Assembly: GCA_020630575.1 (NCBI GenBank)
Contig: JAHDBD010000016.1
Location: 1-43,154, forward strand
Source: Bernardetia sp.
GTDB lineage: Bacteria; Bacteroidota; Bacteroidia; Cytophagales; Bernardetiaceae
Direction of reading: 5' to 3'
DNA length: 43,154 nt
Of the stretch, positions 3,687 to 29,125 are shown piece by piece (position 1 is the first letter of the stretch; every line of letters begins with the position of its first letter). A program made the translations under genes and the position numbers. The notes beneath the pieces are model-generated. The model saw nothing but the letters and a program-made list of their open reading frames with translations, did no database searches and was not told the origin of the DNA.

Positions 3687-5018
3687 TTATTCAAAGGCTT
3701 CCACGGAATAGACTGTCTGTTCCAAAAATTTATCTAGCAGACTTCTTTCCTCTAAAACTATTTCTACTGTTCCATAAATTTCATTTTTAGAATCTAAATC
3801 TACTTCGACCTTTCTGTTGGTTTGTAAACCATTGTCTAATTTTAGTTGGACAGAATATTTATTTTCTTGTGGCGCAAGGCTTATCTGTGCAACTTCTGCT
3901 TCTATCCAACCATAACGAGCAAAAGGATAGGCTTCTAATTTTATTTTTGCTTTATTGGCTTCTTTTCCCTCCTTGAGCTTAGAAATATGTTTTGAGTCTA
4001 CTTTTGTATAGGCATAAATAGCATTTTTTTGAGGAATAACAGAAATAATCTCTTTATCCATACCAACTGATTGATACAAATTAAGAGGATTAAAGAAATT
4101 AACTTTACCTTCTATCGGACTAATAATCAAATAAGAGGTTTTCCAATCTTCTAACATTTTCTTTAGAGTTGCAAAACTAGTTCGTAATTGTTGCTTATAC
4201 TTAAATGCTTGCTCTTGATAAGCAATAGAAACTTCTACAAGCTGTTGATTGAGCTGACTAACTCTCATTTGGGCATTTAGATTTGCTTCTTTATTTTGCA
4301 AAAAACTGCTCTCTTTGTTTAGAAATGCACTCTTTGTTTGTAAAAACTCTTGTTTGGCAATTGCTTCACTTTTGTACAATAATGAATCCGTAATATATTT
4401 TTGTTTGCTCAACTCATAGTCTCTTTCTTGAAGTTCATATTTTTCTTGTAAAATAACTCTTAACGAATTTTGAATTTCTATTTCTGAACGAATAGCAGCT
4501 TGTTTTTGAGCATGCGAGTTAGTTTTAGAAAATAACTGATAATCTAAAATATTATTTTTTAGTCTTTCGTAATCTAGTTGTAGATTTCCCAAATTTGTAA
4601 AGAAAGGAATTTCATTTTCCTGAAAAAAATCTACACTTTCAAATACTGAATTTTGACTAGAAAGCGTGTCTAAATAATCTTCTAACTTTTTGGCTTCTTT
4701 CCAATCTGTTGTGCTTTCCAAGACTAATAAAAGCTCATTTTCTTTTACCTCTTGACTATGTGCTGCATTTATAAAAATAATACGGCTATTAATCTTTGGA
4801 AACAAACTTGCTTTTGCTTGATTTGCATATAGTGTTACTTCTGAAGTCGATAATTCAGGGTAACGTATAAAGTGAGAAACGACAAGCATTAGAAGCAAAA
4901 CACCAAAGATGATTGTAATACCTGAACGCATAAAAAAGCCTTGTGGACTTGTCAATAATTCTTGTGTTTCTTCTGAATAAGAGCGAAAAACCTCTTCTCT
5001 TTCTATATTATCTTCCAT
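3687..5018 (-). CDS. HlyD-family secretion adaptor (membrane fusion protein) of bacteriocin/peptide export type
   Basis: 443 aa. Single N-terminal TM (ITIIFGVLLLMLVVSHFI), a long coiled-coil central region and a C-terminal beta domain. This matches the HlyD/CvaA/LcnD-like architecture. Directly downstream of the C39-like/VKOR/Trx gene. Confidence 0.7.
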   Translation of the reverse strand: MEDNIEREEVFRSYSEETQELLTSPQGFFMRSGITIIFGVLLLMLVVSHFIRYPELSTSEVTLYANQAKASLFPKINSRIIFINAAHSQEVKENELLLVLESTTDWKEAKKLEDYLDTLSSQNSVFESVDFFQENEIPFFTNLGNLQLDYERLKNNILDYQLFSKTNSHAQKQAAIRSEIEIQNSLRVILQEKYELQERDYELSKQKYITDSLLYKSEAIAKQEFLQTKSAFLNKESSFLQNKEANLNAQMRVSQLNQQLVEVSIAYQEQAFKYKQQLRTSFATLKKMLEDWKTSYLIISPIEGKVNFFNPLNLYQSVGMDKEIISVIPQKNAIYAYTKVDSKHISKLKEGKEANKAKIKLEAYPFARYGWIEAEVAQISLAPQENKYSVQLKLDNGLQTNRKVEVDLDSKNEIYGTVEIVLEERSLLDKFLEQTVYSVEAFE

Positions 5019-5083
5019 TACAAAATTTACATTATTCTTAGTAGTAGAAACTAATTAGGTACAACTTTAAACTATTTTGATAA

Positions 5084-6766
5084 TTAGTTTTCTTGCAAAG
5101 ATAGTTCTTCTTCTGGATTTTCTTCTGACTCATCCATTTCACTAGCCAAATGAACTAAAAAATACTCTAAATCAGTAACTGTATATTTTTCTGGTAATAA
5201 ATAACCATTTACAATAAAAGCAGGTGTAAAAGTAATTCCTGTCTGATTTATCCAAGTATAATGCTCTGAAATGATACTTTCTTTTTCTTTATCAGAATAA
5301 GATGTTGGAAGATTTGATAACATTTCTGAAATTTGTTTGTAATCTTCACTTGTTTGATTGGCAGTCAGATGGCACATAGTTGTAGTAAAATAATTGCCAA
5401 AATCTTCTCTCAATTTTTGTAAATCTTTCTTTGCGCTAATACAAGGTGGACAAGTAGGGCGACTAATGACAACTAAAGAAACTTTACTCTCCTCTTCTTC
5501 TTCATCTAGTTCGGCTGAAATAGTATTTCCTTCTACAAAATGGGTTGGAACTTCGCTTATATCTACTTTTTTATTTTGATGAAGAAGTGTTTTGAAAACC
5601 TCATAATCATACTTAAAAGAACGTAGATTCTTAGTTTCGTTATTAGAAGAGTTATATTTTTCAAGAACTGGTTTTAAAATATTCCAAATAAATATAGGCA
5701 ACAGGAATGAAAAAACAGCTATTGCTAAAATTGAAAAAACAGAATACAAAGTAAAAGTAGAAGATAAAATTTCATCTTGAAAGCTAAATAAATATATTCC
5801 CCCTAACACAGATTCTACAAACAAAACTGCCATTACAGAAACACAAAGCGAACACCATTCTTTAAGAACAAATTTCTGATAATATAAAGACACAACAACA
5901 GCAAAAATACCCAAAACAGAAATTAAACTTTGAAAAATAAATCCCCAAGAATTACCAATCAGTAAAAATAAAAATGCCCCAAAGAAATAATAAACTCCTA
6001 ATTCAGAAAAGGTAAACCATTTTTTGATTGAATCTATTTTACTGGTATTTTCTTGTTTTATGTCAGCACAAGAAGATGATTTTCCGAAGGCAGTACAGGC
6101 TTTTTTGAAAACTGCGTTATTTTTAAAAATTTCTCCAGAAAGTAAGATAGCACTGATTACAAATCCTATAGTATGTAAAATATAAAAGGAAACTTCAAGG
6201 ATAGACTTTGTGACTTGTTGATTTGTAGTAAAAAAAGTTTTTCCAACTAAAAATAAAAAAGAAATACCTACTAAAACTTGAATGGTATTTTTTATAGTGT
6301 CAGAAAACTGTTGGTTCTTTTGTGCTTTTTTGTGAGCAGAGTAATTTGGTTCTGCTGCATTTTCATTTTTATCTAATAACAGTGTATAACCTGTCCATGA
6401 TTTTTCAAATTCTTCTATTTCAACTATCTGTTTCTCTGAATTGACATTAATCAAGACTACTTCATTGTCTCTAACTTCGTCTAAAATAGAATAATCCGTG
6501 TGTGTTCTTCCATTTTCATCATTATGAGAAGCCAAAACAAGAGCAGGCAAAAGAATTTCTGATAAATGCTCTTTTCCAATCTGAACAGCTAAAGACTCTA
6601 TTTTATAATGTGCTAAGAGTGTAGTAAGATCACTTAATGTTTGAGCATCATTATATTTTGCTGTCAGTTTTTGTAGATAAGTGAAAGTATAAGAAATTTC
6701 AAATTTATCTAATAAAATACTTACGATAGTTTTCATATTATATCTATTTTCTTTTAAAGTTACCAA
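5084..6766 (-). CDS. Tri-domain protein: N-terminal peptidase C39-like domain (no catalytic Cys) + VKOR membrane domain + C-terminal thioredoxin-like CPPC domain
   Basis: 560 aa. N-terminal ~150 aa align with the C39 domain of ComA/PCAT proteins (LPALVLASH...THTDYSILDEV..., conserved WTG motif) but contain no cysteine. The central region has 5-6 TM helices with the VKOR loop Cys pair (CTAFGKSSSC) and a CXXC at the start of a TM helix (CSLC). The C-terminus has a thioredoxin fold with CPPC (VVISRPTCPPCISAKKDL). Confidence 0.8.
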   Translation of the reverse strand: MVTLKENRYNMKTIVSILLDKFEISYTFTYLQKLTAKYNDAQTLSDLTTLLAHYKIESLAVQIGKEHLSEILLPALVLASHNDENGRTHTDYSILDEVRDNEVVLINVNSEKQIVEIEEFEKSWTGYTLLLDKNENAAEPNYSAHKKAQKNQQFSDTIKNTIQVLVGISFLFLVGKTFFTTNQQVTKSILEVSFYILHTIGFVISAILLSGEIFKNNAVFKKACTAFGKSSSCADIKQENTSKIDSIKKWFTFSELGVYYFFGAFLFLLIGNSWGFIFQSLISVLGIFAVVVSLYYQKFVLKEWCSLCVSVMAVLFVESVLGGIYLFSFQDEILSSTFTLYSVFSILAIAVFSFLLPIFIWNILKPVLEKYNSSNNETKNLRSFKYDYEVFKTLLHQNKKVDISEVPTHFVEGNTISAELDEEEEESKVSLVVISRPTCPPCISAKKDLQKLREDFGNYFTTTMCHLTANQTSEDYKQISEMLSNLPTSYSDKEKESIISEHYTWINQTGITFTPAFIVNGYLLPEKYTVTDLEYFLVHLASEMDESEENPEEELSLQEN

Positions 6767-6844: not shown

Positions 6845-7009
6845 TTCTTATACGTTACAATACTCAGGGAATTGATTTGGGTTACACATAATGTAAGGAG
6901 GACAACAACATTCAGGTAATGTGTTGCATCTGAAACTACCACCATTTACTTTAGTTGCTTTTTCTTGAGAGATAGCAAATTTTCCAAATTTCTTTTTCAA
7001 AGATTTCAT
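6845..7009 (-). CDS. Unannotated 54-aa precursor peptide with double-glycine leader and a 6-Cys core (bacteriocin/RiPP-like)
   Basis: Manual translation gives MKSLKKKFGKFAISQEKATKVNGG | SFRCNTLPECCCPPYIMCNPNQFPEYCNV*. Below the 60-aa ORF-track cutoff. The leader ends in GG. The 5'UTR and leader are paralogous to the ORF at 9998..10192. Confidence 0.6.
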
Positions 7010-7293
7010 AAAAATTGAATTTAATAGGTATAATTAAAATAATTTATCAAGATTACTTACTTATACATTTTTAATAATTACCAAGTAAGTTTGACACTGT
7101 AAATATCAATAAAAACAAAGCAAATTTCCAAATAAAAATTACATTTATTTTTACTAAAATATTAAACAACTGAATTACAGACATTTACAAAGTGTTAATT
7201 TTTAAAAACACAAATTATTTGATATTGTAATTAAAACCCAATATGTTTCTATTTTTAAAACGCTATAATTTATGATAATTCTTTCTTTTTAAT

Positions 7294-7389
7294 CTAAATA
7301 GCTAAAGACTCTACTTTATAGTATGTAAAAAGTAATACAATATTACTTAAAGTTTGAGCTTGATTGGATTTTTTAATAAGCTTTGACAA
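7294..7389 (-). pseudogene. Truncated remnant of a second C39-like/VKOR gene (N-terminal domain fragment)
   Basis: The minus-strand translation ...KLIKKSNQAQTLSNIVLLFTYYKVESLAI* aligns with residues ~32-61 (KLTAKYNDAQTLSDLTTLLAHYKIESLAVQ) of the 5084..6766 protein. There is ~75% nucleotide identity to 6580..6665. No start codon and a premature stop. Confidence 0.45.
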
Positions 7390-7393
7390 AATT

Positions 7394-7433
7394 AGGCGTC
7401 TATAAGACGCCTAATTTGTCTAATAAAAATGTA
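7394..7433 (-). terminator. Terminator hairpin plus conserved 24-bp 3'UTR element downstream of the 473-aa thioredoxin-domain gene
   Basis: Hairpin AGGCGTC-TATAA-GACGCCT. It is followed by GCCTAATTTGTCTAATAAAAATGT, which is near-identical to 9186..9209. Confidence 0.5.
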
Positions 7434-7441
7434 CTTTTATT

Positions 7442-8812
7442 TTATAATTGATTGATTTGAGTTTCCAATGCTTTATATTGTCTCTCATCAAAAGTCTCAT
7501 CTTTTACTTCAAAAGCTTTTTCTAGCATTTTTTGTGCTTTTTGTTTTTCCTTATTGTGAAAGAAAACTTTTGCAGCAGTAAAATAGTCAGAATAAGAAGC
7601 AAGATATTCTTTCTCTAAAACTTGTTTCCAAATAGTGCTTAGGTATGATATTACTTCTTCTTGAACTTCCATTTTCAAATATTTTGAGGTATTATCATTT
7701 AAAAAATATATAGGCATTTGACTATCATTTCTAAAATTTTCTTCTATATTTTTTTGTAGATTATCAATTTGTCCATATTTCAAAAGATATTTACCAAACT
7801 TTGCACTCTCATTAATTTGAAAATAAAAGTTCATAGCTTCTCTATTTGTGATGAAAGTAACAAAACTATGAGAAATGGGACGTTCAAAACTTCTTTCTTT
7901 GCTGAGTAATTCTAATTTTTCAGAAAATAGTTCGTATTTTGAAATAGCCTTTTCAAAGTTTGTCATATCTTCCTCTGATATATTTTTTATTTCTTTAGTG
8001 TGACTAATAATTTTATCAATAGCATTAAAAAAAAGTATCTCTTCCATATAATTTTCATACGCCATTATGCTATCTCCATAGTTTTCTTCAAATTTATCTA
8101 TATGATCAAGATAAAAATTATATGTTTTATCGTTTCTGGTTTGTATTAATCTTTCTAATAAAAACTCAACTTGTTGCTTAGAATATTCGTTTTTTTCTTG
8201 CATACATTCTACAAATCTATCTTTTATTAAAATCATTTCTTTCTGTAGCTCATCTTCAGGAATAATACCCAAATATGTAATTACTAAATCTACATTACAA
8301 GGATTTTCAAAGTATTTTTGTTTTGCTCCTTTGTGTATAAGTTGATTTACTTCAGATTCTGATGAAAAAACTTTTCCTTTCTTCAAAGCCTGTCCATAAA
8401 TTAGTAGTTCATAGGCTGCTAAAGCACCTACATATTTAGATATCAGATTTCCCTCTCCATCTAGAAATAATAAAGTAGGAACGACTGAAATTTGATAATC
8501 TTTACTTATTTTTTTTCCTTTTTCTGTTTCTGTATTAATTTTGATATTCACAAAATTATTATTGAAATAGGCTGACAAAGTAGAATCTGTAAAAGTAAAT
8601 TTATCCATTTCTTTGCAAGGCTTACACCAATTTGTATAAGTATCTATAAAAATCAGTTTATTTTCTTTTTTAGCTTTGTCTTTAGCTTCTTCAAAGGAAA
8701 GGTATTCGAATAATATTCTTTTGCCTTGTTTAAGGTTTAAACTGTTATCTTGAGCTAGAACGGAAAAAGAAATACAAATAAATAACAGAATATAGATTAA
8801 TTTAGATTTCAT
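7442..8812 (-). CDS. Secreted thioredoxin-fold protein (WCKPCK active site) with long C-terminal helical extension
   Basis: Probable start at the internal Met, giving signal peptide MKSKLIYILLFICISFSVLAQ. The ORF track extends to 8863. Thioredoxin-like region FIDTYTNWCKPCKEMDKF. The remaining ~330 aa has no assigned family. Confidence 0.65.
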   Translation of the reverse strand: MKSKLIYILLFICISFSVLAQDNSLNLKQGKRILFEYLSFEEAKDKAKKENKLIFIDTYTNWCKPCKEMDKFTFTDSTLSAYFNNNFVNIKINTETEKGKKISKDYQISVVPTLLFLDGEGNLISKYVGALAAYELLIYGQALKKGKVFSSESEVNQLIHKGAKQKYFENPCNVDLVITYLGIIPEDELQKEMILIKDRFVECMQEKNEYSKQQVEFLLERLIQTRNDKTYNFYLDHIDKFEENYGDSIMAYENYMEEILFFNAIDKIISHTKEIKNISEEDMTNFEKAISKYELFSEKLELLSKERSFERPISHSFVTFITNREAMNFYFQINESAKFGKYLLKYGQIDNLQKNIEENFRNDSQMPIYFLNDNTSKYLKMEVQEEVISYLSTIWKQVLEKEYLASYSDYFTAAKVFFHNKEKQKAQKMLEKAFEVKDETFDERQYKALETQINQL

Positions 8813-9225: not shown

Positions 9226-9915
9226 TTATTCCTCTAAAAGAGCAGTAATCTCATTTGTATATAAAGGAAAGTAATCATAAATGTGCTGTGAATAACCAGA
9301 AGTAATAAAACGAATAACTCCTTTTTTATCAATAAAATAGCTTTTAGGGGCAGCTTCTGTAAGATAATATTCTTTTAAAAAGTCTTTTGTAACATTTTTA
9401 AATTCCTTGCTGACTCTATCATCTTTATAATAACCATCACCATTCTTTCCAAGATAAGAAGCAGGAATAACTTTTACCTCATCGTTGTACTTTCCTTCTC
9501 TAAACTCTTTACCTTTTTTAGGGTTTTCTAGATATTTTTGTAAAGCTAAGAAATCTTCTGGGGTATCATGATGTGAAATCATCACAAAAACCACTTCTTT
9601 ACCTTTATAGTATTTTTCTAATTTATTTATAAAAGCTATCTCACGCATACACGGACCACAAAGGCGAAACATAGTAGTAAATAAAACTACTTTGCCTTTT
9701 AAATCAGATAACTGCACAGAATCTCCTTTTAGAGTTCTGAATTTAAAATTAGTAGCTTGTGTATCTAGCAATGTATCCATCTGTTCTTTACATTGTTTGC
9801 CTAAAGATGTTTTATAATAACTTTCTTTTGTCAGAACCTCTAAAGTAGTGGTATCTTGAGCTAACGAATGAAAACAAATAAAAAATAATAAGAAAGCAAA
9901 AATATTTTTTTTCAT
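9226..9915 (-). CDS. Secreted TlpA/redoxin-like thiol-disulfide oxidoreductase (CGPC)
   Basis: 229 aa with signal peptide MKKNIFAFLLFFICFHSLAQ. Thioredoxin-fold active site VVLFTTMFRLCGPCMREI. Immediately downstream of precursor peptide B. Confidence 0.7.
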   Translation of the reverse strand: MKKNIFAFLLFFICFHSLAQDTTTLEVLTKESYYKTSLGKQCKEQMDTLLDTQATNFKFRTLKGDSVQLSDLKGKVVLFTTMFRLCGPCMREIAFINKLEKYYKGKEVVFVMISHHDTPEDFLALQKYLENPKKGKEFREGKYNDEVKVIPASYLGKNGDGYYKDDRVSKEFKNVTKDFLKEYYLTEAAPKSYFIDKKGVIRFITSGYSQHIYDYFPLYTNEITALLEE

Positions 9916-9997: not shown

Positions 9998-10192
9998 TTA
10001 AACAGCAGTACAATATCCACCATCTGTATCTGCAAGTGCTTGCAAATCATCCATATTTTCGGCTGCAATAAGCCAATCTGTTCCACTTCCATCTGAGTTT
10101 TGAGTACAAACAGCCATGATGCCACCCTTAACTTTAGCCAATTTCTCAGTAGAAACAGCAAACTTTCCAAATTTTTTCTTTAACGAGTTCAT
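9998..10192 (-). CDS. 64-aa precursor peptide with double-glycine leader and a 2-Cys core
   Basis: MNSLKKKFGKFAVSTEKLAKVKGG | IMAVCTQNSDGSGTDWLIAAENMDDLQALADTDGGYCTAV. The leader is ~80% identical to the peptide at 6845..7009. The 5'UTRs are also homologous (cataaaaat..atttaa...). Confidence 0.6.
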   Translation of the reverse strand: MNSLKKKFGKFAVSTEKLAKVKGGIMAVCTQNSDGSGTDWLIAAENMDDLQALADTDGGYCTAV

Positions 10193-10541: not shown

Positions 10542-13500
10542 TTAATCTTCTTTAGCTATTTTGAAAGTAAGTGTTTCACTTGGTGTAACTACATTGATAA
10601 AATACATTCCCGAAGCATACTTACTCAAATCCAAACGGATTTCTTGTTGAGATTCTTCTCTGGAAATAGATTTAGTGATGAGAGTTCTACCAATACCATC
10701 AGTAAGTGTAAGTGTGAAGGCATCTTTTAAGTTAGCAGCCAATTTCAAACGAACCTCAGAACTAGTTGGGTTTGGATAAACTAATGTACAACAATTTCCT
10801 TCTTCGTCATCAACACCTGTAACTGGTTCAGGCTTACGATAAAAGATACTATTTGAAGTAATAGCTTGACAACCTGTATCATAGGTAACTTTAGCTCTGT
10901 AACGCCCTGTTTCATTAAGAGCAAGTGAAAGAGAATTAGAAACACTAAGCATTTCACCATCTTTACTCCACTCCACTTCTGTAATTGTTCCAGTAGATGT
11001 TATTGTTGCGATATTTTCTTCTACTAGATTAATATGTGCTGTTGGAACATCTATTCTTTCAATACTTACTGAATCGGTAATGAATACACAACCAGTTCCT
11101 AAAGAAACCTCAACATGATACTTTCCTGAACTATTCACAGTAAAGTTTCTATTTTCAGAACCTATACGCAATCTATTTCCATTTCTAAATAAAGTATAAA
11201 TTGCATTTTCTACTTCTGAAACAGAAATTATAGCACCTTGATCTCCTGCACAAAACTGTTCTTTGTCAGCAGTAATACTAATGTCTGTTGGAAATGAAAT
11301 TACCTCTACATTAATTTGAGCTTCTTGAGTACATGTTTCTTTGCTTACTCGCAATGTATAAGTTCCTGCATTAGAAACTGTAATAGAAGAACTTGTTCCT
11401 ATTTCAGTATCATTAAACAACCATTGATAAGTCGCACCTTCTACTTCTAAAGCAGATAATTGACCTGTTTCACACAACAATACTTGGCTACCTTGTTCTA
11501 TTTGAGCAGGAGCAACTTGTCCTACTTTCACTTGAACAGTTGGAGATACCATTGAAACACACTCATTTTGTGTTATTCTTAATGAGTAATTTCCACTTCT
11601 AATAACTTGATAAGTTGGCGCATTGCTATTTTGTATAGCTACTCCATTTGAATACCAAGTATAAATCAAATCAGAAGAAGCATTTTGTGTATCTGCTTCT
11701 AAAGTCAATGTGTTTTCACAGGTTGAACGGACTAAATCTCCCAAAATAGTTGCTACTGGAATTTCTTTAACATCAATAGTAACAGCTAATCTGGTCTGAC
11801 TTTCATAACGAATACCATTTGCAGCAACATAATAGGTTTTTGCAGCAGTAAGGTTTTGAGTTTCGAAAGTATAAGAATCATCTTGAATAGGCTCAGTAGA
11901 TGTTTCAGACTCATACCAAAGAATACTTCTTGTTGTATGTGTACTATTTACTACAATCTTTCCTTTTCCACCTGCACAAGCATCTGTTTTGCTTATTAAT
12001 GTTGGAGCTTTAGGGTAAGTAACAGCATTGGTAGCAACTTCTTTTCTAGATACTGAATTGAATGCTTCTAGTCTATACCCATAAAAAGTATCTTCATTCA
12101 ATAAGCTATCATCATAAGAAAGAGTAGAAGCTGATAGAGTTGCCACCAAACGGTTTAATCTATATAACTTATACCCAGTTGCATTTGTAGCAGCTTGCCA
12201 AGTAAGGTCAATACGAGAAGTATCTATTGCAATAGCTTTAAATTGTGTAGGTGCAGATACTGATGGTATAGTATTTCCTCCTCCACCTGTTGGAGCAACT
12301 ACATTTATAAGGCTACTTAAATCGGTAAAAGCACTTCCATCATCATTTACTCGTATACTATACTCTCCAATTTCATCAAATTGTAAATCTGACCAAGTAA
12401 ATACTCCATTTATCATAGCACGACTTCCTAATCCAGAAGTAGCACTAAGAACTCCAGTTCCAGTTCCTCCGTCTCTTAACAATGTAATTGTTCTGGCTGC
12501 TCGGTCTATATTTCCATTTGCATCAAGTGCCTGTACGCTTACTACAAAGTTTGAGCTAACAGTTGCTGTTGTTGGTACAGTTGAAAAACCTAAACGTGTA
12601 GCCACCACCTCTAAAGTAAATGTATTTGATACTACATTAGCAGGGAAAGTAGATGCAAAAGAAGAAGAACTATTTGAAGTTTGCGCTCCATGTGCCACAC
12701 TAGGAATTTGGAATTGTAATACTCCTTCGTCTAAAACTCCTGTTGTATTCAAAAACACTTTTACAGTATAGTCTGTATTTGTTCCATTTGCTGTGCTTGC
12801 ATTACCAGCAGGAATAGTAAAACGAATTTGGTCTGCCGTAATAGTAGCTGTTGCAGTAATCTGAGTTCCTCCAGACCATAATTCTGCTCCTTGTAGTTGT
12901 GTTGTCCAGTCTGTTACTGTATTTGCAACTCCTTGTTTAATATCAACCTGAGTTACATCAGTAGGCAAAGCATCTGTTGTTGCTAAATCCTCTACTTTAA
13001 AAGAAAATACTTCTACTGCATTAGCTGATGTAGTAGCCAATGAAGATATTGAGACAGAAGCAGGCATTGTGGTTGGCGCAACAATTCGTGAGTCTGCATC
13101 TGCTGATGTAGTAATAGTAGTAAACTGCCAGTTAGCAGGTAAAACCCCTCCAAAACCTAAACTATTAGCTGTAAATGTACTGCTAGGAACATCCACAGAA
13201 TAAGTTGTAGAAGTTGCTAGTGCCGAAGGTAAAGTTACGGTTGCTGTATTTCCTGTAATTGTAGTATTAGTTGCAGAAACAGGAATTACAATTGGAGTAG
13301 CTCCTCCTGTAAGAGTAATAGAGCCTGTACCGATAGTAGGAACACGATTAAAAGTAAGAGCTAGTGATGTATTTGTATTTACATTAGTCGCATTATTTGC
13401 AGGCAAAAAGCTAACTAATTCAATAGGCTTTTCTCTTACAACTACATCATCAACAGCAAAACCATATCCCCAAGTATTCAAATCATCATAGTAAAAAGCA

Positions 13501-16500
13501 ATCCATACTTGAGGTTCGTTAGCATACGCATCTAAATCTAGGGTAACATCTTGCCAAACGCCAGATATAGATGCCATTGTATGAATAGTTGTCCAAGTAA
13601 TTCGGTCTGTACTTATACGAACCTCTCCTCTATCCGTTCGGAATACAGCTCTAAATGCCATTTCAATTTGAGAATAAGAGGAAAAATCAAACTTTGGACT
13701 AATCAACCACGATTTATAAGGTGCTCCACAACCTGGACTAGGACAAGCATCATCGTTTGCTGCTGCATATTGATTACCAGCAGGAACATCTGGGATGGTA
13801 AAGAAAGAACTTCCCAAGTTAGTTCCATACTGCCAAGTTCCAACTCCTGCTCCATCATTTATTATATCCCAACACTCTGCAGGATTTGGATTCTCAAAAT
13901 CTTCTGTATAAGGTAGTACAGTAACAGGAGGATTATTTTGAACTGTATGATTTGAAATAGCATTATTTGCTCCATTTGTATCAGTTGCTAGGTTAGCAGA
14001 TGCTGTAAGAACATAACTACCTCCTGCTGACATATCTACTGTAGTAGTAAATGTATAATCTAAACTAGCTGCACCATTTAAATCACTAGCTAAAACAAGA
14101 TTTTCATTTACTGCTGTTCCACCATTTACTGTGTAAGAAACTGGAATTGTTGTTCCACTTGGTATAGCAGAACAAGCTAAGTTTTTGATACGAATTGTAA
14201 TGGCTTCAGTAGCTGTTCTCAAATCACAACCTTGTGTTGGAGAAACGATTGCTGAAAGTTCTAAATCTATTCCTGAGCCAGCAGCAGGAGTAATAGAAAA
14301 CGCTACTGAACGCTGACTTGTAGCTCCTGTAGTTGTATTTCTTGCACGAATACTAAACCAAGTTTGTCCTGAAAGCCCTGTTGCAGTAAAAGTAGTAGTT
14401 GCACTTGTTCCTATTTGTGTATATACTCCAGTAGTAGTGTTCAACTGATAAACAATATACTCGTCTGCATCAGTTACTGCATTCCATTGTAAGATAGCTG
14501 AACCACTACAAGGCTGACCTGTAATACCAGTAGGAACACCAATAATTGAAAATGCTTCACTTGTTCCACTTAAAGATGGAGTTGCTGAAGAAACACGAAT
14601 CTTTGCTTCATTAGTCATTGCATTTGGAACAGTCCAACTCAAACGACGAGTGTTGGCAGCCACAGCACCATTAATAACTGTCCAAGTAGTTCCATTATCC
14701 AAAGAATACTCAACAGAAGTAGTTCCTGAAACTCCTTCCATATCCCATTGAATAAGTTCAGTAGCAGAAGGCGTTAAAGACATTCCAGCTGATGGATAAG
14801 TAACTTCAATATAAGGTTCTGTAACCGTCCAAGTCAATGAATATTGTTGGTTTGCTCCAGACGGAACAGCTGTTCCTTTTACTCTTAGTGTATATGTTCC
14901 TGTTGCTGGGGTAGGAATAGTTACTTGTTCGATAATATCTACATTGTTTACAGCTCTAATAGCTACATTATTCGGATTTGCACCATCTAATGTCCAAGGA
15001 AGCCAAGTATTTGTAGTTGGGTCTAATACTTCTAAATCCAAATTATTTATCAAAGCAGGATTTGCATTTGCTGCTGCTGCTGGGTCAGACCAACATAACA
15101 TTACTTTTAGTTCGTGTGTACCAGCAGGAACAGCAATAGTAACATCATTTTGTCCTGCTGTCGTAACTGTATTTATTGCATAATTATTTCCCTCTAATGC
15201 TTTAACAGCTTTCAAACCATTAATTCTACCAAAACCATATTTATAATCAGGCCCTGTATTTCCTAAATCATCAGCATTATTTGATAATACAGCCTTCATA
15301 AGTGAGGCAATAGGGTCTGCATTTGCATTTAATTGACGATAGCTTTGATAAAGTTGAGCTACTGTACCCGAAACACCTGGTGCTGCCATTGAAGTACCAC
15401 TATTTGCTCCATATCCATTACTTGGTAATGTAGAAACTACACCATTTCCGAATGCACTTACTTCAGGTTTGATACGTCCGTCTTCAAGAGGACCAAAACT
15501 ACTAAATGTAGTAATAACATCGTTATTTGTTAAAGCTCCTACTGTAATTGTGTTTTTGGCTGCTTTTCCTGTTGTAGAACCAAAACCACCTGCACAAGAA
15601 CTTTGAGAATTGCCTGATGAAAATACATGAACAAGTTGAGGATTATTATTTACTAATAAATCTTGTCCTCTATTATTACTACCATAAGGGTCGCCAGTAG
15701 CACAATTAGGTCCTCCTCCGTATGAATTTTGAGTAATTACAATACCAAAGTTAGTAATGGCATTTTGCATTTCAGTAGCAATATCTCCATTAAAGTTATG
15801 AGAATAAATTTGAGCATTAGGAGCCATTCCTGTATTTCTAGGATTTAGTAAACCTGCTCCTGCCATTGTTCCTGCTACGTGTGTTCCGTGGTCGCTATCT
15901 GATGTATTTTCTACAAGAGTACGTCTTCCACTAAAGTCTAAATGATTTGCAACGTTTCCTCCGTCCCAAATTCCAAGATTTACTCCTGAACCATCTAAAT
16001 TTCTAGCACCATAATTTAGGATAGCCGAACGGTGGGCTAATTTTCCATAATAATTTTCTTCTTTTGGAGGCTCTGGCAAAGATTCTACCCAAAGTACCCA
16101 AGGCAAATTAGCTACTTGCATAATTGCTGTTTGAGGTACACTTACTGTCAGAATACCTGATACTTTACTTTCATAGATTAGCTTTCCTCCCATGTTTATC
16201 ATAGCCATAGAAGTAAGCATGGGATTTACAGTATCAAAGGGAATAATATTCAATTCTACTTGATTAGGCTCAGAAATAGCCCATTCAGGAATATCTCCTT
16301 GTACTAATCTTGTTTGCGTTTTTTGATTAACAGACAGTTTTACAAACGCATGAATCTTAAAATCTGAAATAAGAGCTTCTAATTTATCATTAGAAATAGT
16401 AGAATTGATTTTTGCAGTATAGGATAAATCTGGCAAATACTGAATCAGTTCGATACCTTTACTTTTTAGATTTTGACGTTGTTGATGTGATGGAAGAGTA

Positions 16501-16757
16501 GTAAATTGTACTACTAAAAAATAATGATTTCCAAAAAGAGCATCTGAAAAACTACTCTTATCATTTTTAAACTGCTCAGTATTTGATGTATACTGTTCAA
16601 TAGATGATTTTAAACGTAAGGAAGGGGAAGAGCTTTGTGCAATTGCTGATTGCATTTGAGAACTCAATATACCTATTCCCAAAACAAGTAATAATACAAG
16701 TTTTTGATAAGAAATAATTGAGTTCTTTGAAGAAGAAAACGAATGTCTATGCTTCAT
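10542..16757 (-). CDS. Giant secreted subtilisin-like (S8) serine peptidase with multiple Ig/FN3-like domains and a T9SS C-terminal sorting domain
   Basis: 2071 aa with a signal peptide. S8 catalytic motifs: D (LGIWDGG), H (DSDHGTHVAGTMAG), S (GTSMAAPGVSGTVAQL). Long Thr/Ser/Gly-rich beta-domain repeats. The C-terminal ~80 aa (CCTLVYPNPTSSEVRLKL...MYFINVVTPSETLTFKIAKED) match the Por/T9SS CTD. Confidence 0.85.
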   Translation of the reverse strand: MKHRHSFSSSKNSIISYQKLVLLLVLGIGILSSQMQSAIAQSSSPSLRLKSSIEQYTSNTEQFKNDKSSFSDALFGNHYFLVVQFTTLPSHQQRQNLKSKGIELIQYLPDLSYTAKINSTISNDKLEALISDFKIHAFVKLSVNQKTQTRLVQGDIPEWAISEPNQVELNIIPFDTVNPMLTSMAMINMGGKLIYESKVSGILTVSVPQTAIMQVANLPWVLWVESLPEPPKEENYYGKLAHRSAILNYGARNLDGSGVNLGIWDGGNVANHLDFSGRRTLVENTSDSDHGTHVAGTMAGAGLLNPRNTGMAPNAQIYSHNFNGDIATEMQNAITNFGIVITQNSYGGGPNCATGDPYGSNNRGQDLLVNNNPQLVHVFSSGNSQSSCAGGFGSTTGKAAKNTITVGALTNNDVITTFSSFGPLEDGRIKPEVSAFGNGVVSTLPSNGYGANSGTSMAAPGVSGTVAQLYQSYRQLNANADPIASLMKAVLSNNADDLGNTGPDYKYGFGRINGLKAVKALEGNNYAINTVTTAGQNDVTIAVPAGTHELKVMLCWSDPAAAANANPALINNLDLEVLDPTTNTWLPWTLDGANPNNVAIRAVNNVDIIEQVTIPTPATGTYTLRVKGTAVPSGANQQYSLTWTVTEPYIEVTYPSAGMSLTPSATELIQWDMEGVSGTTSVEYSLDNGTTWTVINGAVAANTRRLSWTVPNAMTNEAKIRVSSATPSLSGTSEAFSIIGVPTGITGQPCSGSAILQWNAVTDADEYIVYQLNTTTGVYTQIGTSATTTFTATGLSGQTWFSIRARNTTTGATSQRSVAFSITPAAGSGIDLELSAIVSPTQGCDLRTATEAITIRIKNLACSAIPSGTTIPVSYTVNGGTAVNENLVLASDLNGAASLDYTFTTTVDMSAGGSYVLTASANLATDTNGANNAISNHTVQNNPPVTVLPYTEDFENPNPAECWDIINDGAGVGTWQYGTNLGSSFFTIPDVPAGNQYAAANDDACPSPGCGAPYKSWLISPKFDFSSYSQIEMAFRAVFRTDRGEVRISTDRITWTTIHTMASISGVWQDVTLDLDAYANEPQVWIAFYYDDLNTWGYGFAVDDVVVREKPIELVSFLPANNATNVNTNTSLALTFNRVPTIGTGSITLTGGATPIVIPVSATNTTITGNTATVTLPSALATSTTYSVDVPSSTFTANSLGFGGVLPANWQFTTITTSADADSRIVAPTTMPASVSISSLATTSANAVEVFSFKVEDLATTDALPTDVTQVDIKQGVANTVTDWTTQLQGAELWSGGTQITATATITADQIRFTIPAGNASTANGTNTDYTVKVFLNTTGVLDEGVLQFQIPSVAHGAQTSNSSSSFASTFPANVVSNTFTLEVVATRLGFSTVPTTATVSSNFVVSVQALDANGNIDRAARTITLLRDGGTGTGVLSATSGLGSRAMINGVFTWSDLQFDEIGEYSIRVNDDGSAFTDLSSLINVVAPTGGGGNTIPSVSAPTQFKAIAIDTSRIDLTWQAATNATGYKLYRLNRLVATLSASTLSYDDSLLNEDTFYGYRLEAFNSVSRKEVATNAVTYPKAPTLISKTDACAGGKGKIVVNSTHTTRSILWYESETSTEPIQDDSYTFETQNLTAAKTYYVAANGIRYESQTRLAVTIDVKEIPVATILGDLVRSTCENTLTLEADTQNASSDLIYTWYSNGVAIQNSNAPTYQVIRSGNYSLRITQNECVSMVSPTVQVKVGQVAPAQIEQGSQVLLCETGQLSALEVEGATYQWLFNDTEIGTSSSITVSNAGTYTLRVSKETCTQEAQINVEVISFPTDISITADKEQFCAGDQGAIISVSEVENAIYTLFRNGNRLRIGSENRNFTVNSSGKYHVEVSLGTGCVFITDSVSIERIDVPTAHINLVEENIATITSTGTITEVEWSKDGEMLSVSNSLSLALNETGRYRAKVTYDTGCQAITSNSIFYRKPEPVTGVDDEEGNCCTLVYPNPTSSEVRLKLAANLKDAFTLTLTDGIGRTLITKSISREESQQEIRLDLSKYASGMYFINVVTPSETLTFKIAKED

Positions 16758-21673: not shown

Positions 21674-23677
21674 TTACTTTCTCAAATAACTAGCAAGTTT
21701 TTGCTTGAAGGCTTCTTTATTAAATGGTTTGGCAATATAATCATTCATTCCTGCTGCAATACATTTTTCGGCTTCTCCTTTTAGTGCAGAAGCAGTCATG
21801 GCGATAATAGTCAAATCTTTAGAAATGGTTTCTCTGATTATTTTGGTAGCTTGGTAACCATCCATTTCGGGCATGTGAACATCCATTAAGACCAAATTAA
21901 ACTCTTCTTTTTGTAGCTTTTCGACGGCTTCTTTTCCATTGAAAGCCACTTCAATTTCATAGTTCCAGTTCTTAAGCATTGTTACTACTAAAAGCTGATT
22001 GATTTCATTATCTTCTGCTAATAAAATCTTATTTGTAATTGGTTTGGGAGCTGCAATACTTGTACTGTCTATATTCTCTTTTTGGATAAGATTTTCAGAA
22101 TTGATTGCATTACGCAGAAAATCAGGAATTTGATTTGTTCTATCTCGCTGTACCATAGGCTGACTTACTTCTGTATATTTTTTGTAGCGAAGTTGAAAAG
22201 CAAATGTAGAACCTTGTCCTACTTTACTTTTTGCATAAATCTCTCCTCCTTGAAGTTCTACCAATTGTTTACATATTGCAAGACCTAGACCTGTTCCACC
22301 ATATTTTCGTGTAGTATCGCTGCTTGCTTGCGTAAACATTGTAAAAATATCATCTATCTTTTCTTCTGAAATCCCTATTCCTGTATCACTTACATAAAAA
22401 TGAAGTGTTACAAAATTTTTATCTTCATCTACCAAATTAGCACCAATTACTATTTCTCCTTTGTGTGTAAATTTTACAGCATTTCCTAAGAGATTAAGCA
22501 AAACTTGTCTTAAGCGTACTTCATCGCCCACAAAACGAGCAGGAATATCTGGACTTATTTTGCTTCTTAAAGTAACCTTTTTAGTATCAGCTTTTACTTT
22601 GATACTACTTATCATATTTTCTACAATTGGATAAAAATCAATTGGACTTTCTTCAAAAGATATTTTTCCAGATTCAATTTTTGATAAATCTAAAATATCA
22701 TTGATAATAACTAAAAGATGGTCAGCAGAAGATTTAATGGCATTGACATACTTCAACTGAACATTATTTAGAGAAGTATCCAATAAAAGCTCTGACATTC
22801 CGTAAACGCCATTCATAGGTGTTCTAATTTCATGACTCATATTTGCCAAAAACTGCTCTTTTGCTTTTGCAGATTGTTCTGCTTGTTCTTTTGCCAAAAC
22901 TAAAGCTAAGTTTTGCTGTTCAATTTGTGCAAGCATATCATCAAAACTTTCTGTCAGTGTTCCGATTTCGTCCCTTCTTTCTCCTCTACTAATTCGTGTA
23001 GAATAGACTTTTTCTTGAGCAATTTGTTTTGTTTGTGCTGTCAGTTCCAAAATCGGTTTCGAAACTAATCTTTGTAAACGAATAGCTATAAAATAAGTAA
23101 GAAGAGAAACAGTAAGCAAAATAAGCCCCGTAATGAGCGCATAACGTTGCATACGATCATAAAAACGATCAAGATTAGATAAAAGATAAACGGTTGGATA
23201 AGTTGGAGGACGATTATCTATCGAAAGTCCTGTTGTATTATCTTTATCAAAATTAGCTAAATCTACTTCTCTACGATGATAAATTGACATTTGATTATTT
23301 AGTAAATCAAAGTCAGAATTTTCATAAGGAGGTTTCTTATAAGCAGGATTTACTTTCATTCCCAAACGCTCATATTTTGCAAAGGGTCTGCCAAGTGTAT
23401 CATATACTTGTGCAGCCAAAATATTAGGGTCAGAAGCAAATAAATCTTTTAACTGGTCTTCTGTATTTTTAGGATCTGCAAAACTAACTGGAAGATAAGC
23501 ATCCCTAGAAATAATCTGCGCTCTATCACGCAAACCTGTTTCTAATTCGGTTCTGTAATCAATCAAGTCATAGATAATAAAAGCCGAAAAGGCAATTATT
23601 AAAGCAATAATAGTCGCTATCATAATCGAACCGACTACTTTTGTCTTTATAGAAACATGATTGAGAAACTTAAACAT
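21674..23677 (-). CDS. Hybrid sensor histidine kinase/response regulator
   Basis: 667 aa. Two TM helices flank a periplasmic sensor region. HisKA H-box ([19 protein letters not shown]), HATPase_c G-boxes ([15 protein letters not shown]). C-terminal REC domain ([12 protein letters not shown]...[13 protein letters not shown]). Confidence 0.85.
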
Positions 23678-27545: not shown

Positions 27546-27992
27546 ATGAAACTAACCATTGAAACTCCAATCAACCGTTCTGCCCAAGAGGTATGGAATG
27601 GCTTTACAGAAAAACTGTTTTTAAAACTTAGTCCTCCTTTTCCAAAGCTCAAACTAAATCGTTTTGATGGCTGTAAAGTAGGAGATGAAGTACATTTAGA
27701 ATTAGATTTTGGGATTTATAGCTCAAAATGGACTTCTTATATTGTGGAACAAGCTGAAACAGAAAGTGAAATTTATTTTATAGATACAGCCGAAAAAGAT
27801 TTGCCCTTTCCTCTCAAAAAATGGAAACACCATCACAGAATAAAAAAAATAGATGAGAATTCGTGTATAATTATCGATGATATAGATTATTATACTTCAT
27901 CTAAGATTTTAGATACAATAATTTATCCTGGAATGTGGGCGCAATTTGCCTATAGAAGTCCTGTTTATAAAAAGTTTTTCGAAGAGGATTAA
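27546..27992 (+). CDS. SRPBCC (START/Bet v1-like) family protein
   Basis: 148 aa. The N-terminal pattern IETPINRSAQEVWNGFTE is typical of polyketide-cyclase/SRPBCC-fold small proteins. Confidence 0.45.
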   Translation: MKLTIETPINRSAQEVWNGFTEKLFLKLSPPFPKLKLNRFDGCKVGDEVHLELDFGIYSSKWTSYIVEQAETESEIYFIDTAEKDLPFPLKKWKHHHRIKKIDENSCIIIDDIDYYTSSKILDTIIYPGMWAQFAYRSPVYKKFFEED

Positions 27993-29125
27993 AATTTTGG
28001 TTCTCTAGGCAAACAAACAATAAAAGTAGTTCCTTCATCAACTGTACTTTTTACATCTATTTTTCCCCCATTACTATATACGATATTTCTAACCAAATGT
28101 AATCCAATTCCTCTTCCTTCTATTTCAGTATTATCTTCGTGTAAACGTTGAAACATACCAAATAGACGGTTTTTATTGGCTTCCATGTCGATTCCTATTC
28201 CGTTATCTTCTACATTTAAGCAATAATATTCTTCTTGAGATTCTGCCCATATTTTTATTTTAGGAGTACGTTTCGGAGAGCGATATTTTATAGCATTTGA
28301 AAGGAGGTTTTGCATAATGCTATACATTAAATCGGGAACAAAAGAGATAGTTTGTTCGTCTGTGAGATCTACTTCAATGTCAATATCAGGTTGATTGTAA
28401 ATCTCTCGCATATCTTGAATTACCTTTCTAGTAAAACTAGATAATTCTATTGTATCAAATTTAGAACCTGAGGTTTGCTGTTCGACAAGAGTTTTGACAA
28501 GTGATTTTAATTTAAGGTGTAATTTGTCCACTCCTTTATATACCTCATCCATTACCTCTTCGGCAGTCTGGGTCAAATCATTGTGTTTTTTTTCTAATTC
28601 GTACAGTTGGATAGAAGCCTTTATAGAAACAATAGGTGACATAAGGTCATGAGAAATAATATGAGCAAACTGTTCTAGTTTTTGATTATATCCTCTGAGC
28701 ATGTCCATTGTTTTGGTCATTTGTTTTTGCGCTTCATTACGCTGTAAAGCATACAGAATTGCTCTTTCCATTCCAAACTCATCCAATGTTCCTTTGACAA
28801 TGTAATCAGCTGCTCCTAAAGAAATAGCTTCTAAACCTACATGAACATCATTTAATCCTGTCAAAACAATAACAGGTGTTCCATAATAATTATCTGTAAT
28901 TGTTTTACATGTTTCTAATCCATGACTATCAGGCAATGACAAATCTAAGAATACTAAATCTACTTTTTTTGTATTCAATTCTTTTAAACCCTCAGTAAGA
29001 GTGCCTGCTGTAATCAGGTTTTTGACAGGGAATGTAGTCTTCTCTAGTATTTCTTGCATGAGAAACTGATCAGCTATATTATCTTCTATCAATAAAATAT
29101 GTATTCTATTCAAAGTTCGATTCAT
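27989..29125 (-). CDS. Hybrid response-regulator/histidine kinase (N-terminal REC + HisKA + HATPase_c)
   Basis: 378 aa. REC (ILLIEDNIADQ...VFLDLSLPDSHG), H-box (IISHDLMSPIVSIK), ATPase motifs (EDNGIGID, GRGIGLHL). Last gene of the phytochrome operon. Confidence 0.8.
   Translation of the reverse strand: MNRTLNRIHILLIEDNIADQFLMQEILEKTTFPVKNLITAGTLTEGLKELNTKKVDLVFLDLSLPDSHGLETCKTITDNYYGTPVIVLTGLNDVHVGLEAISLGAADYIVKGTLDEFGMERAILYALQRNEAQKQMTKTMDMLRGYNQKLEQFAHIISHDLMSPIVSIKASIQLYELEKKHNDLTQTAEEVMDEVYKGVDKLHLKLKSLVKTLVEQQTSGSKFDTIELSSFTRKVIQDMREIYNQPDIDIEVDLTDEQTISFVPDLMYSIMQNLLSNAIKYRSPKRTPKIKIWAESQEEYYCLNVEDNGIGIDMEANKNRLFGMFQRLHEDNTEIEGRGIGLHLVRNIVYSNGGKIDVKSTVDEGTTFIVCLPREPKF

Follow-up and report, generated by a model that had tools for sequence, protein, structure and literature searches.

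The minus-strand open reading frame (ORF) listed at 5084..6766 of a 43,154-nt stretch of Bernardetia sp. DNA (assembly GCA_020630575.1, contig JAHDBD010000016.1; hereafter the window) encodes a membrane protein in which a non-catalytic C39-like peptidase domain is fused to a VKOR core and a DsbA-like thioredoxin-fold (Trx) domain. Our analysis suggests that this protein is a leader-guided, disulfide-forming enzyme acting on the cysteine-rich peptides with double-glycine (GG) leaders encoded beside it, and that its redox apparatus faces the cytoplasm, a reading to which we assign a probability of roughly 0.55. The broader part of this proposal, that the fusion protein is a dedicated oxidase for the neighboring GG-leader peptides, can be held with good confidence. 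The order of the parts is [C39-like]-[H0]-[VKOR TM1-4]-[TM5]-[DsbA-like], where TM stands for transmembrane helix and H0 is an extra helix of this kind preceding the VKOR core. No description of a C39-VKOR fusion was found in the literature searched.

The coding sequence of the fusion (5084..6736, minus strand, 550 amino acids plus stop, coordinates checked by translation) almost certainly starts at the ATG at 6736, because all close homologues, which come from Bernardetia spp. and share 65-94% identity, begin at the internal Met11 of the listed frame (MKT/MKN). The TTG at 6766 was rejected as a start, since no homologue reaches upstream of this Met, and residues are therefore numbered from the Met encoded by the ATG at 6736. 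Searches against Pfam returned Peptidase_C39 (E=2e-12, profile positions 18-132 of 133, omitting the N-terminal stretch of the profile that bears the catalytic Cys) and VKOR (PF07884, E=1e-8), while Thioredoxin_2/4 scored at or just under threshold; NCBIfam holds no model covering the whole protein. Single-sequence searches of both protein halves against PDB sequences gave nothing meaningful, and only the family profile produced matches. The protein carries seven cysteines, at positions 214, 223, 295, 298, 429, 432, and 455.

The N-terminal domain (residues 1-125, 6362..6736, minus strand) has the papain-like C39 fold and is non-catalytic, as a first-pass annotation of this DNA had proposed. 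The absence of Cys noted there for the first 150 or so residues extends over residues 1-213. In an alignment guided by a hidden Markov model, the catalytic Cys of PCAT1, a peptidase-containing ATP-binding cassette (ABC) transporter (PCAT), coincides with Met1 of the fusion protein or lies immediately ahead of its N-terminus, the catalytic His falls on Asp81 (THTDY), and the catalytic Asp falls on Asn97, and the search for a hidden Cys/His/Asp triad by sensitive alignment revealed none. Compared with the peptidase domains of PCATs (Clostridium thermocellum PCAT1, ComA PEP, LahT150; MEROPS/Pfam C39), the fusion has lost all three catalytic residues, begins at the position of the catalytic Cys, and is joined to a VKOR-Trx unit instead of an ABC transporter; only the peptidase domain, the linker, and the first TM helix are common to it and PCAT1. 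The loss is a property of the family: among 146 aligned relatives, a Cys at or beside the catalytic position occurs in 24, the catalytic His is kept in 10, and the full triad is found in only two (P0044 and P0093). Judging from these alignments, the N-terminal domain of the family is a decommissioned peptidase domain. The two members with a full triad show the motifs NCG..., GHFVV, and D, and may be among the few in an otherwise non-catalytic family that are still able to cleave leaders.

Some of the likenesses that had been drawn for this domain needed revision. The LP..A and WTG motifs are genuine elements of the C39 framework, whereas the segment read as H..Y.V is not the catalytic His motif, the His being replaced by Asp81. 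The resemblance to the C39-like domains (CLDs) of RTX exporters holds in principle, both having the C39 fold without a catalytic Cys, but not in lineage, since the family profile matches PCAT/ComA peptidase domains at E of about 1e-12 to 1e-7 (PCAT1 at about 1e-12) and the RTX-type CLD of HlyB only at E=2e-3. Moreover, the CLD of HlyB is part of an ABC transporter and handles RTX proteins devoid of a GG leader, whereas the fusion protein has no ABC domains and is encoded next to GG-leader peptides, its likely clients, and not next to RTX proteins. The closest relatives of the N-terminal domain are true leader-binding peptidase domains, including LahT150, which has been solved with its leader, and its most conserved residues are the C39 framework positions P64, F110, and W..G.

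The proposed fusion to VKOR and thioredoxin was borne out, an intact VKOR and an intact thioredoxin-fold domain following the C39-like domain. The VKOR core (residues 175-318, 5783..6214, minus strand) consists of four TM helices, placed at 175-203, 243-260, 263-291, and 296-318 in the AlphaFold2 (AF2) model, and is supported by PF07884, by this model, and by the family profile, which matches the VKOR-Trx structures of Synechococcus (4nv6/3kp9) at E=1e-6 to 2e-5 with both Cys pairs aligned. The loop pair Cys214...Cys223 (CTAFGKSSSC, 6068..6097, minus strand) aligns with the corresponding Synechococcus pair, and the active-site CXXC (Cys295-Ser-Leu-Cys298, 5843..5854, minus strand) lies at the start of TM4 and aligns with CMYC of the same protein. 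A fifth helix, TM5 (residues 330-352, 5681..5749, minus strand), is seen in the hydropathy profile and forms, in the AF2 model, part of a helix spanning 330-375 that includes a helical stalk up to residue 375; through it the chain returns to the membrane face on which the VKOR active site lies. The chain ends in the DsbA-like thioredoxin-fold domain (residues 395-539, 5120..5554, minus strand), whose CPPC at 429-432 is encoded at 5441-5452 and whose cis-Pro loop is formed by Thr504-Pro505.

These elements are strongly maintained across the 146 family members, where Cys214, Cys223, Cys295, and Cys432 are invariant and Cys298 and Cys429 exceed 90%; the CPPC and the Thr504-Pro505 are likewise conserved, and the fold of the thioredoxin domain is DsbA-like. 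The family consensus includes VL.S, with a Ser/Thr after the loop Cys pair, and the Bernardetia loop is divergent at this point (CADIKQENTSK, with a predicted local distance difference test score, pLDDT, of 63-72). The four-helix core, the loop Cys pair, the CXXC, TM5, and the C-terminal Trx-fold domain with its CXXC are shared with the Synechococcus VKOR-Trx (3KP9/4NV5), and by homology with that enzyme electrons in the fusion protein may pass from the Trx domain to the loop cysteines, on to the CXXC, and finally to quinone. The fusion differs in having an additional N-terminal TM helix and the C39-like domain, in the DsbA-like character of its Trx domain, which contains a helical insertion, and in a reversed charge pattern that predicts the opposite orientation in the membrane.

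The number of helices determines how these domains are placed relative to each other. Between the C39-like domain and the VKOR core, the AF2 model (pLDDT 91.8, predicted template modeling score, pTM, 0.82) shows by DSSP a continuous helix of 39 residues (132-170, 6227..6343, minus strand) made of a Lys-rich linker and the extra TM helix H0 (residues 151-170 or so). This straight helix is followed by a turn of four residues and then by TM1 (175-203), forming a tight H0/TM1 hairpin. The module composed of the C39-like domain, linker, and H0 aligns with the peptidase domain, linker, and TM1 of PCAT1, the region 132-170 corresponding to PCAT1 148-186. The first-pass annotation was right that two hydrophobic helices precede the loop Cys pair, namely H0 and VKOR TM1, and that canonical VKOR-Trx fusions have one, the Synechococcus structure containing the counterpart of TM1 only; in the profile alignment it is H1 (175-203), and not H0, that corresponds to VKOR TM1, profile position 175 matching Synechococcus residue 17. 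It had also called the membrane topology ambiguous, which it is to a lesser degree than claimed, given the H0/TM1 hairpin of the model and the family-averaged hydropathy, where six strong hydrophobic segments are found across the family and H0 is the strongest. Because the number of helices is even, the C39-like domain must, on this model, share one side of the membrane with both VKOR Cys pairs (the loop pair and the CXXC) and with the Trx domain, sidedness being deduced from the lengths and turns of the AF2 helices. A cytoplasmic C39-like domain combined with a periplasmic VKOR, one of the arrangements considered earlier, would require an odd number of helices and is not favored.

The side on which all these domains are located was predicted from the number of Lys and Arg residues in the alignment-defined loops of all 146 aligned members. 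On the side of the C39-like domain and redox sites the mean count is 3.6 in the N-terminal flank, 4.7 in the Cys loop, 1.9 in the TM3-4 loop, and 2.9 in the C-terminal flank, amounting to 13.1, whereas the three loops of 9-11 residues on the opposite side have means of 0.36, 0.16, and 0.43 (0.95 in total). The bias points to the C39/redox side in every one of the 146 members, the smallest difference being 6. The Synechococcus VKOR, which faces the periplasm according to experiments, shows the reverse, with positively charged TM2-3 (KRWR) and TM4-5 (HRWLDGGK) loops, and the canonical relatives P0164 and P0167 have the same pattern as Synechococcus and opposite to the fusion family, a control made up of a single solved structure plus two or three sequences. 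A control search seeded with the Synechococcus fragment returned 5 proteins only, and no canonical VKOR genes were present among the related loci retrieved.

No signal peptide was found ahead of the folded N-terminal domain of about 130 residues. An N-in topology is predicted because of the charge bias, the missing signal peptide, and the likeness of the N-terminal module to that of PCATs, and we consider it probable that the fusion protein is inward-facing, with its redox apparatus on the cytoplasmic face. The protein is thus predicted to depart from the N-in, periplasm-facing topology of the Synechococcus type and to present its catalytic cysteines to the cytoplasm in the manner of the ApVKORi type. 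An inversion of the whole VKOR-Trx unit towards the cytoplasm is a third option that did not figure among the topologies first considered, and it is the one favored by the charge pattern and the homology to PCATs. Inward-facing VKORs have so far been described in just a few Crenarchaea, Aeropyrum pernix among them, according to PMC13486548, which cites Hatahet and Ruddock (2013) and Hibender (2017).

The genomic context points to GG-leader peptides as the likely substrates. A precursor peptide gene recognized by ORF translation (6848..7009, minus strand) encodes the leader MKSLKKKFGKFAISQEKATKVNGG followed by a core of 29 residues with 6 Cys, and a second one (9998..10192, minus strand) has a near-identical leader, MNSLKKKFGKFAVSTEKLAKVKGG, ahead of an unrelated core of 40 residues with 2 Cys. 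The leaders of both precursors follow M[KN]SLKKKFGKFA.S.EK..KV.GG, and three precursors of B. litoralis (locus L003, 5230-5406, 9087-9311, and 9612-9839) have leaders of the same type joined to further unrelated cores. The Bernardetia GG leader, of 24 residues (M.SLK.KFGKF.VS....K...GG), is therefore nearly constant, while the cores that follow it are unrelated and contain 2-6 Cys, a combination that fits recognition through the leader with a diversifying cargo. Besides, 66 nt downstream of the fusion gene lies a gene (3687..5018, minus strand) for a periplasmic adaptor of the HlyD type whose N-terminus contains a TM helix; it matches NCBIfam TIGR01843 at E=6e-20, below the cutoff of the model, and shares 24% identity along its whole length with the HlyD encoded after the PCAT of a related locus (L002). 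No PCAT separates the fusion from the HlyD-type gene downstream of it in Bernardetia, the two being immediate neighbors (3687-6736 in the window, 10001-12999 in L003).

The same association is found in a large family. Exhaustive HMMER searches at E<=1e-30 yielded at least 184 clusters at 50% identity, nearly all of them with 510-560 residues and spanning all three domains, and a pattern scan built on an alignment of an 8-sequence subset confirmed 506 loci in species-representative genomes, of which the best 80 all belong to Bacteroidota (Chitinophagales, Sphingobacteriales, Bacteroidales, Flavobacteriales, and Saprospiraceae). A full-length PCAT was present in 49 of the 62 related loci with at least 3.5 kb of downstream sequence, and in nearly all cases a HlyD-type adaptor gene comes next on the strand of the PCAT, an order of PCAT and then HlyD that is conserved in relatives; the one PCAT inspected, that of L002, retains the catalytic motifs DCG...HFVV. 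Near the fusion gene, Cys-rich GG-leader precursors, most of which have 6 Cys, occur about nine times as often as expected from a reversed-sequence control (40 against about 4.5), and 14 of them lie within 500 bp downstream of it.

Genes for redoxins are also recurrent in these loci. The window contains an exported thioredoxin-fold protein (7442..8812, minus strand, its start taken at MKSKLIYILLFICISFSVLAQD, a signal peptide; Pfam Thioredoxin_2/7/DsbH) and an exported TlpA/ResA-type redoxin (9226..9915, minus strand, signal peptide MKKNIFAFLLFFICFHSLAQD; Pfam AhpC-TSA/Redoxin, NCBIfam ResA/TlpA-like). Of 86 related loci, 43 encode redoxins of the thioredoxin, TlpA, or AhpC type beside the fusion, and about 42 of the 59 redoxins inspected carry a Sec-type signal peptide by a crude test; the related loci inspected for redoxins were L002-L086. 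Possible roles for the exported redoxins include immunity by reduction, isomerization, or a periplasmic step of maturation.

In the mechanism that we propose, the non-catalytic C39-like domain would hold the precursor by its GG leader without cleaving it, while the tethered DsbA-like domain would use its CPPC to oxidize the cysteines of the core peptide. The DsbA-like domain would then be re-oxidized by the VKOR loop pair Cys214/Cys223, from which electrons may flow to Cys295/Cys298 and into the membrane quinone pool. H0 would invert the VKOR relative to canonical bacterial VKORs, so that the leader-binding domain, the Cys pairs, and the DsbA-like domain would all be cytoplasmic, and the oxidized precursor, still bearing its leader, would be passed to a PCAT exporter that removes the leader and secretes the peptide together with the HlyD adaptor. 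Type I secretion of the PCAT kind (10.1101/2023.01.26.525739, PMC11465617) takes the cargo from the cytosol to the medium in one step, and therefore such cargo would bypass periplasmic oxidases and its oxidation in the cytoplasm makes sense. Additionally, Bacteroides are said to lack a general disulfide machinery (PMC6671954).

All the components involved are of known kinds, and there are precedents for modification guided by a leader as well as for VKORs that face inward; what is unexpected is that a bacterial VKOR is predicted to be inverted and that a peptidase domain would have been reused for recognition. Extended to the whole family, the proposal is that an inverted VKOR-DsbA enzyme is widespread in Bacteroidota, with a dead peptidase domain holding GG precursors while disulfides are formed in the cytoplasm before one-step secretion, and we regard this generalization as about evenly poised.

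Several observations weigh against the cytoplasm-facing orientation. The cytoplasm is a reducing compartment, and the nearest structural relatives of the thioredoxin domain (ScsC, BdbD, DsbA, and DsbG) are periplasmic or extracytoplasmic. The orientation is itself a prediction, for which we combined the positive-inside rule with a secondary-structure summary of the AF2 model and with the homology that the N-terminal module shows, and the canonical control described above is small. No PCAT was found in the window, nor within 10 kb on either side of the locus in B. litoralis, and the redoxins with signal peptides (two in the window, and redoxins in 43 of 86 loci) hint at a redox step in the periplasm and fit poorly with oxidation confined to the cytoplasm. 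Furthermore, bacterial, plant, and mammalian VKORs are all outward-facing according to PMC13486548.

The best-surviving alternative, which we nevertheless consider unlikely, builds on these observations and proposes that the protein is inserted N-out and that its C39-like domain, VKOR sites, and DsbA-like domain capture and oxidize the peptide in the periplasm, either as a leader-bearing exported precursor or as a mature peptide held through another surface, alongside the exported redoxins. An even number of helices fits this arrangement equally well, every characterized bacterial VKOR faces outward (PMC13486548), the Trx domain resembles those of periplasmic DsbA, ScsC, and BdbD, the redoxins with signal peptides are conserved in the loci, and in Bernardetia no PCAT is adjacent that would remove the leader during export. 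However, a folded domain of about 130 residues and a linker with about four Lys/Arg would have to be moved across the membrane with no signal peptide to direct them, and the loops left in the cytoplasm would hold less than one positive charge in total, against about 13 in the periplasm, in 146 of 146 members. The N-terminal module is also homologous to the peptidase domain, linker, and TM1 of PCATs, which are cytoplasmic. Recognition of the leader in the periplasm after export, a possibility raised by the first-pass annotation, is for these reasons the less likely one, the charge distribution and the PCAT homology favoring the cytoplasm, and it is hard to reconcile with the relatives, because the intact, catalytic PCAT that neighbors the fusion in most of them would strip the leader during export, before the peptide could reach the periplasm.

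Quite unlikely, in our judgment, is the alternative that the C39-like domain does not receive the leader and serves instead as a docking or regulatory module, pairing for example with the peptidase domain of a PCAT or with HlyD, and that the VKOR-DsbA part oxidizes other clients, such as the redoxins of the locus or the exporter, or contributes to producer immunity. Leader binding by the C39-like domain is a step that we infer, a point against the proposed mechanism, the most conserved residues (P64, F110, and W..G) belong to the framework and not to a demonstrated peptide groove, and the Bernardetia gene adjoins HlyD and no PCAT. In the bacteroidetocin system the thiol oxidoreductase and the TM protein gave no immunity, yet the activity of the toxin needed both (PMC6671954). 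Opposed to this alternative are the tight linkage of the fusion to genes of Cys-rich GG-leader precursors, with 14 of them within 500 bp, the conservation of the leaders in front of hypervariable cores, and the proximity of the domain to true leader-binding peptidase domains such as LahT150, which together make recognition of the leader the simplest interpretation. Very unlikely is a split topology in which H0 does not span the membrane and forms an interfacial or re-entrant elbow, leaving the C39-like domain in the cytoplasm and a canonical VKOR-Trx in the periplasm and coupling leader recognition or exporter docking inside to oxidation outside, which is what a canonical VKOR preceded by an N-terminus of the PCAT type suggests at first sight and recalls the interfacial elbow helix that precedes TM1 in ABC exporters, but is at odds with H0 being the most hydrophobic segment in the family average, with the straight 39-residue helix and 4-residue turn to TM1 that form a membrane-spanning hairpin in the AF2 model, and with the nearly uncharged TM2-3 and TM4-5 loops and the Lys/Arg-rich Cys and TM3-4 loops, which an elbow-like H0 would not explain.

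The logic proposed for the cytoplasm-facing, leader-guided enzyme resembles that of enzymes that mature ribosomally synthesized and post-translationally modified peptides (RiPPs), where a leader-recognition module is tethered to the modifying enzyme and modification takes place in the cytoplasm, before leader removal and export. The fusion differs from these enzymes in that the modification would be plain disulfides driven by the membrane quinone and in that the recognition module would be a recycled protease domain and not a PqqD-like RiPP recognition element. With ApVKORi of Aeropyrum pernix (PMC13486548), the fusion would share, by prediction, the cytoplasm-facing VKOR cysteines, so that this crenarchaeal enzyme serves as a precedent; ApVKORi is linked to general cytoplasmic disulfide formation in hyperthermophiles and has neither a leader-binding domain nor a bacteriocin context. 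The loci of bacteroidetocins (class IIf) in Bacteroidales have in common with those described here the Cys-containing GG-leader peptides, the PCAT, and dedicated redox accessory genes, and they encode their own thiol oxidoreductase and a 5-TM protein, the deletion of either of which attenuates toxin activity (PMC6671954). Their accessory functions reside in separate genes, and no C39-like/VKOR/Trx fusion is described for them in that study.

If the proposed mechanism is correct, disulfide formation would join the list of leader-directed, RiPP-like modifications, and a protease domain would have been shown to be reused as a recognition element. Among bacteria, the fusion would be the first reported case of an inward-facing VKOR, and VKORs of this orientation, previously described for a few Crenarchaea, would extend into a major bacterial phylum; the fusion would also explain how disulfide-rich peptides that leave Gram-negative cells through PCAT/HlyD, bypassing the periplasm, acquire their disulfides. 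From an applied perspective, it would represent a small, naturally occurring module with which disulfide-bonded peptides could be made in the bacterial cytoplasm, which could be useful for peptide production.

The names given to these proteins in databases need correcting, since the fusion protein is not an ABC exporter and has no C39 peptidase activity to judge from its lost triad. Relatives are named 'cysteine peptidase family C39 domain-containing protein' or 'ABC-type exporter', and P0006 of B. litoralis is entered as 'ABC-type bacteriocin/lantibiotic exporter with N-terminal double-glycine peptidase domain' even though it contains no ABC domains, so that the exporter label on this entry is a propagated misannotation. 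The Bernardetia protein has no match to ABC_membrane or ABC_tran in Pfam or NCBIfam, and the possibility that it is an exporter itself was rejected, as it has neither an ATPase nor an ABC transmembrane domain.

A decayed second copy of the 5' end of the fusion gene is also present in the window (7264..7407, minus strand), covering residues 15-62 at 50% identity with two in-frame stops (tblastn E=5e-7; also seen as a 31-aa ORF). It sits between the gene of the exported thioredoxin and that of the 6-Cys precursor, and a similar N-terminal fragment is found upstream of the intact fusion gene in a distant relative (L001, 566-760). On the basis of their position, such fragments may mark cassette recombination at the junction between precursor and fusion genes.

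Directly upstream of the bacteriocin-like locus, the minus strand encodes a protein of 2071 residues (10542-16757) with the subtilisin-type motifs DHGTHVAG and GTSMAAP and a long, repeat-rich C-terminal part. Other minus-strand genes of the window include a bacteriophytochrome-type histidine kinase (29742-32156, with PAS_2-GAF-PHY-HisKA-HATPase domains), a response-regulator/HATPase protein (27989-29125), and a hybrid kinase (21674-23677), and these kinase and response-regulator genes appear unrelated to the fusion locus.

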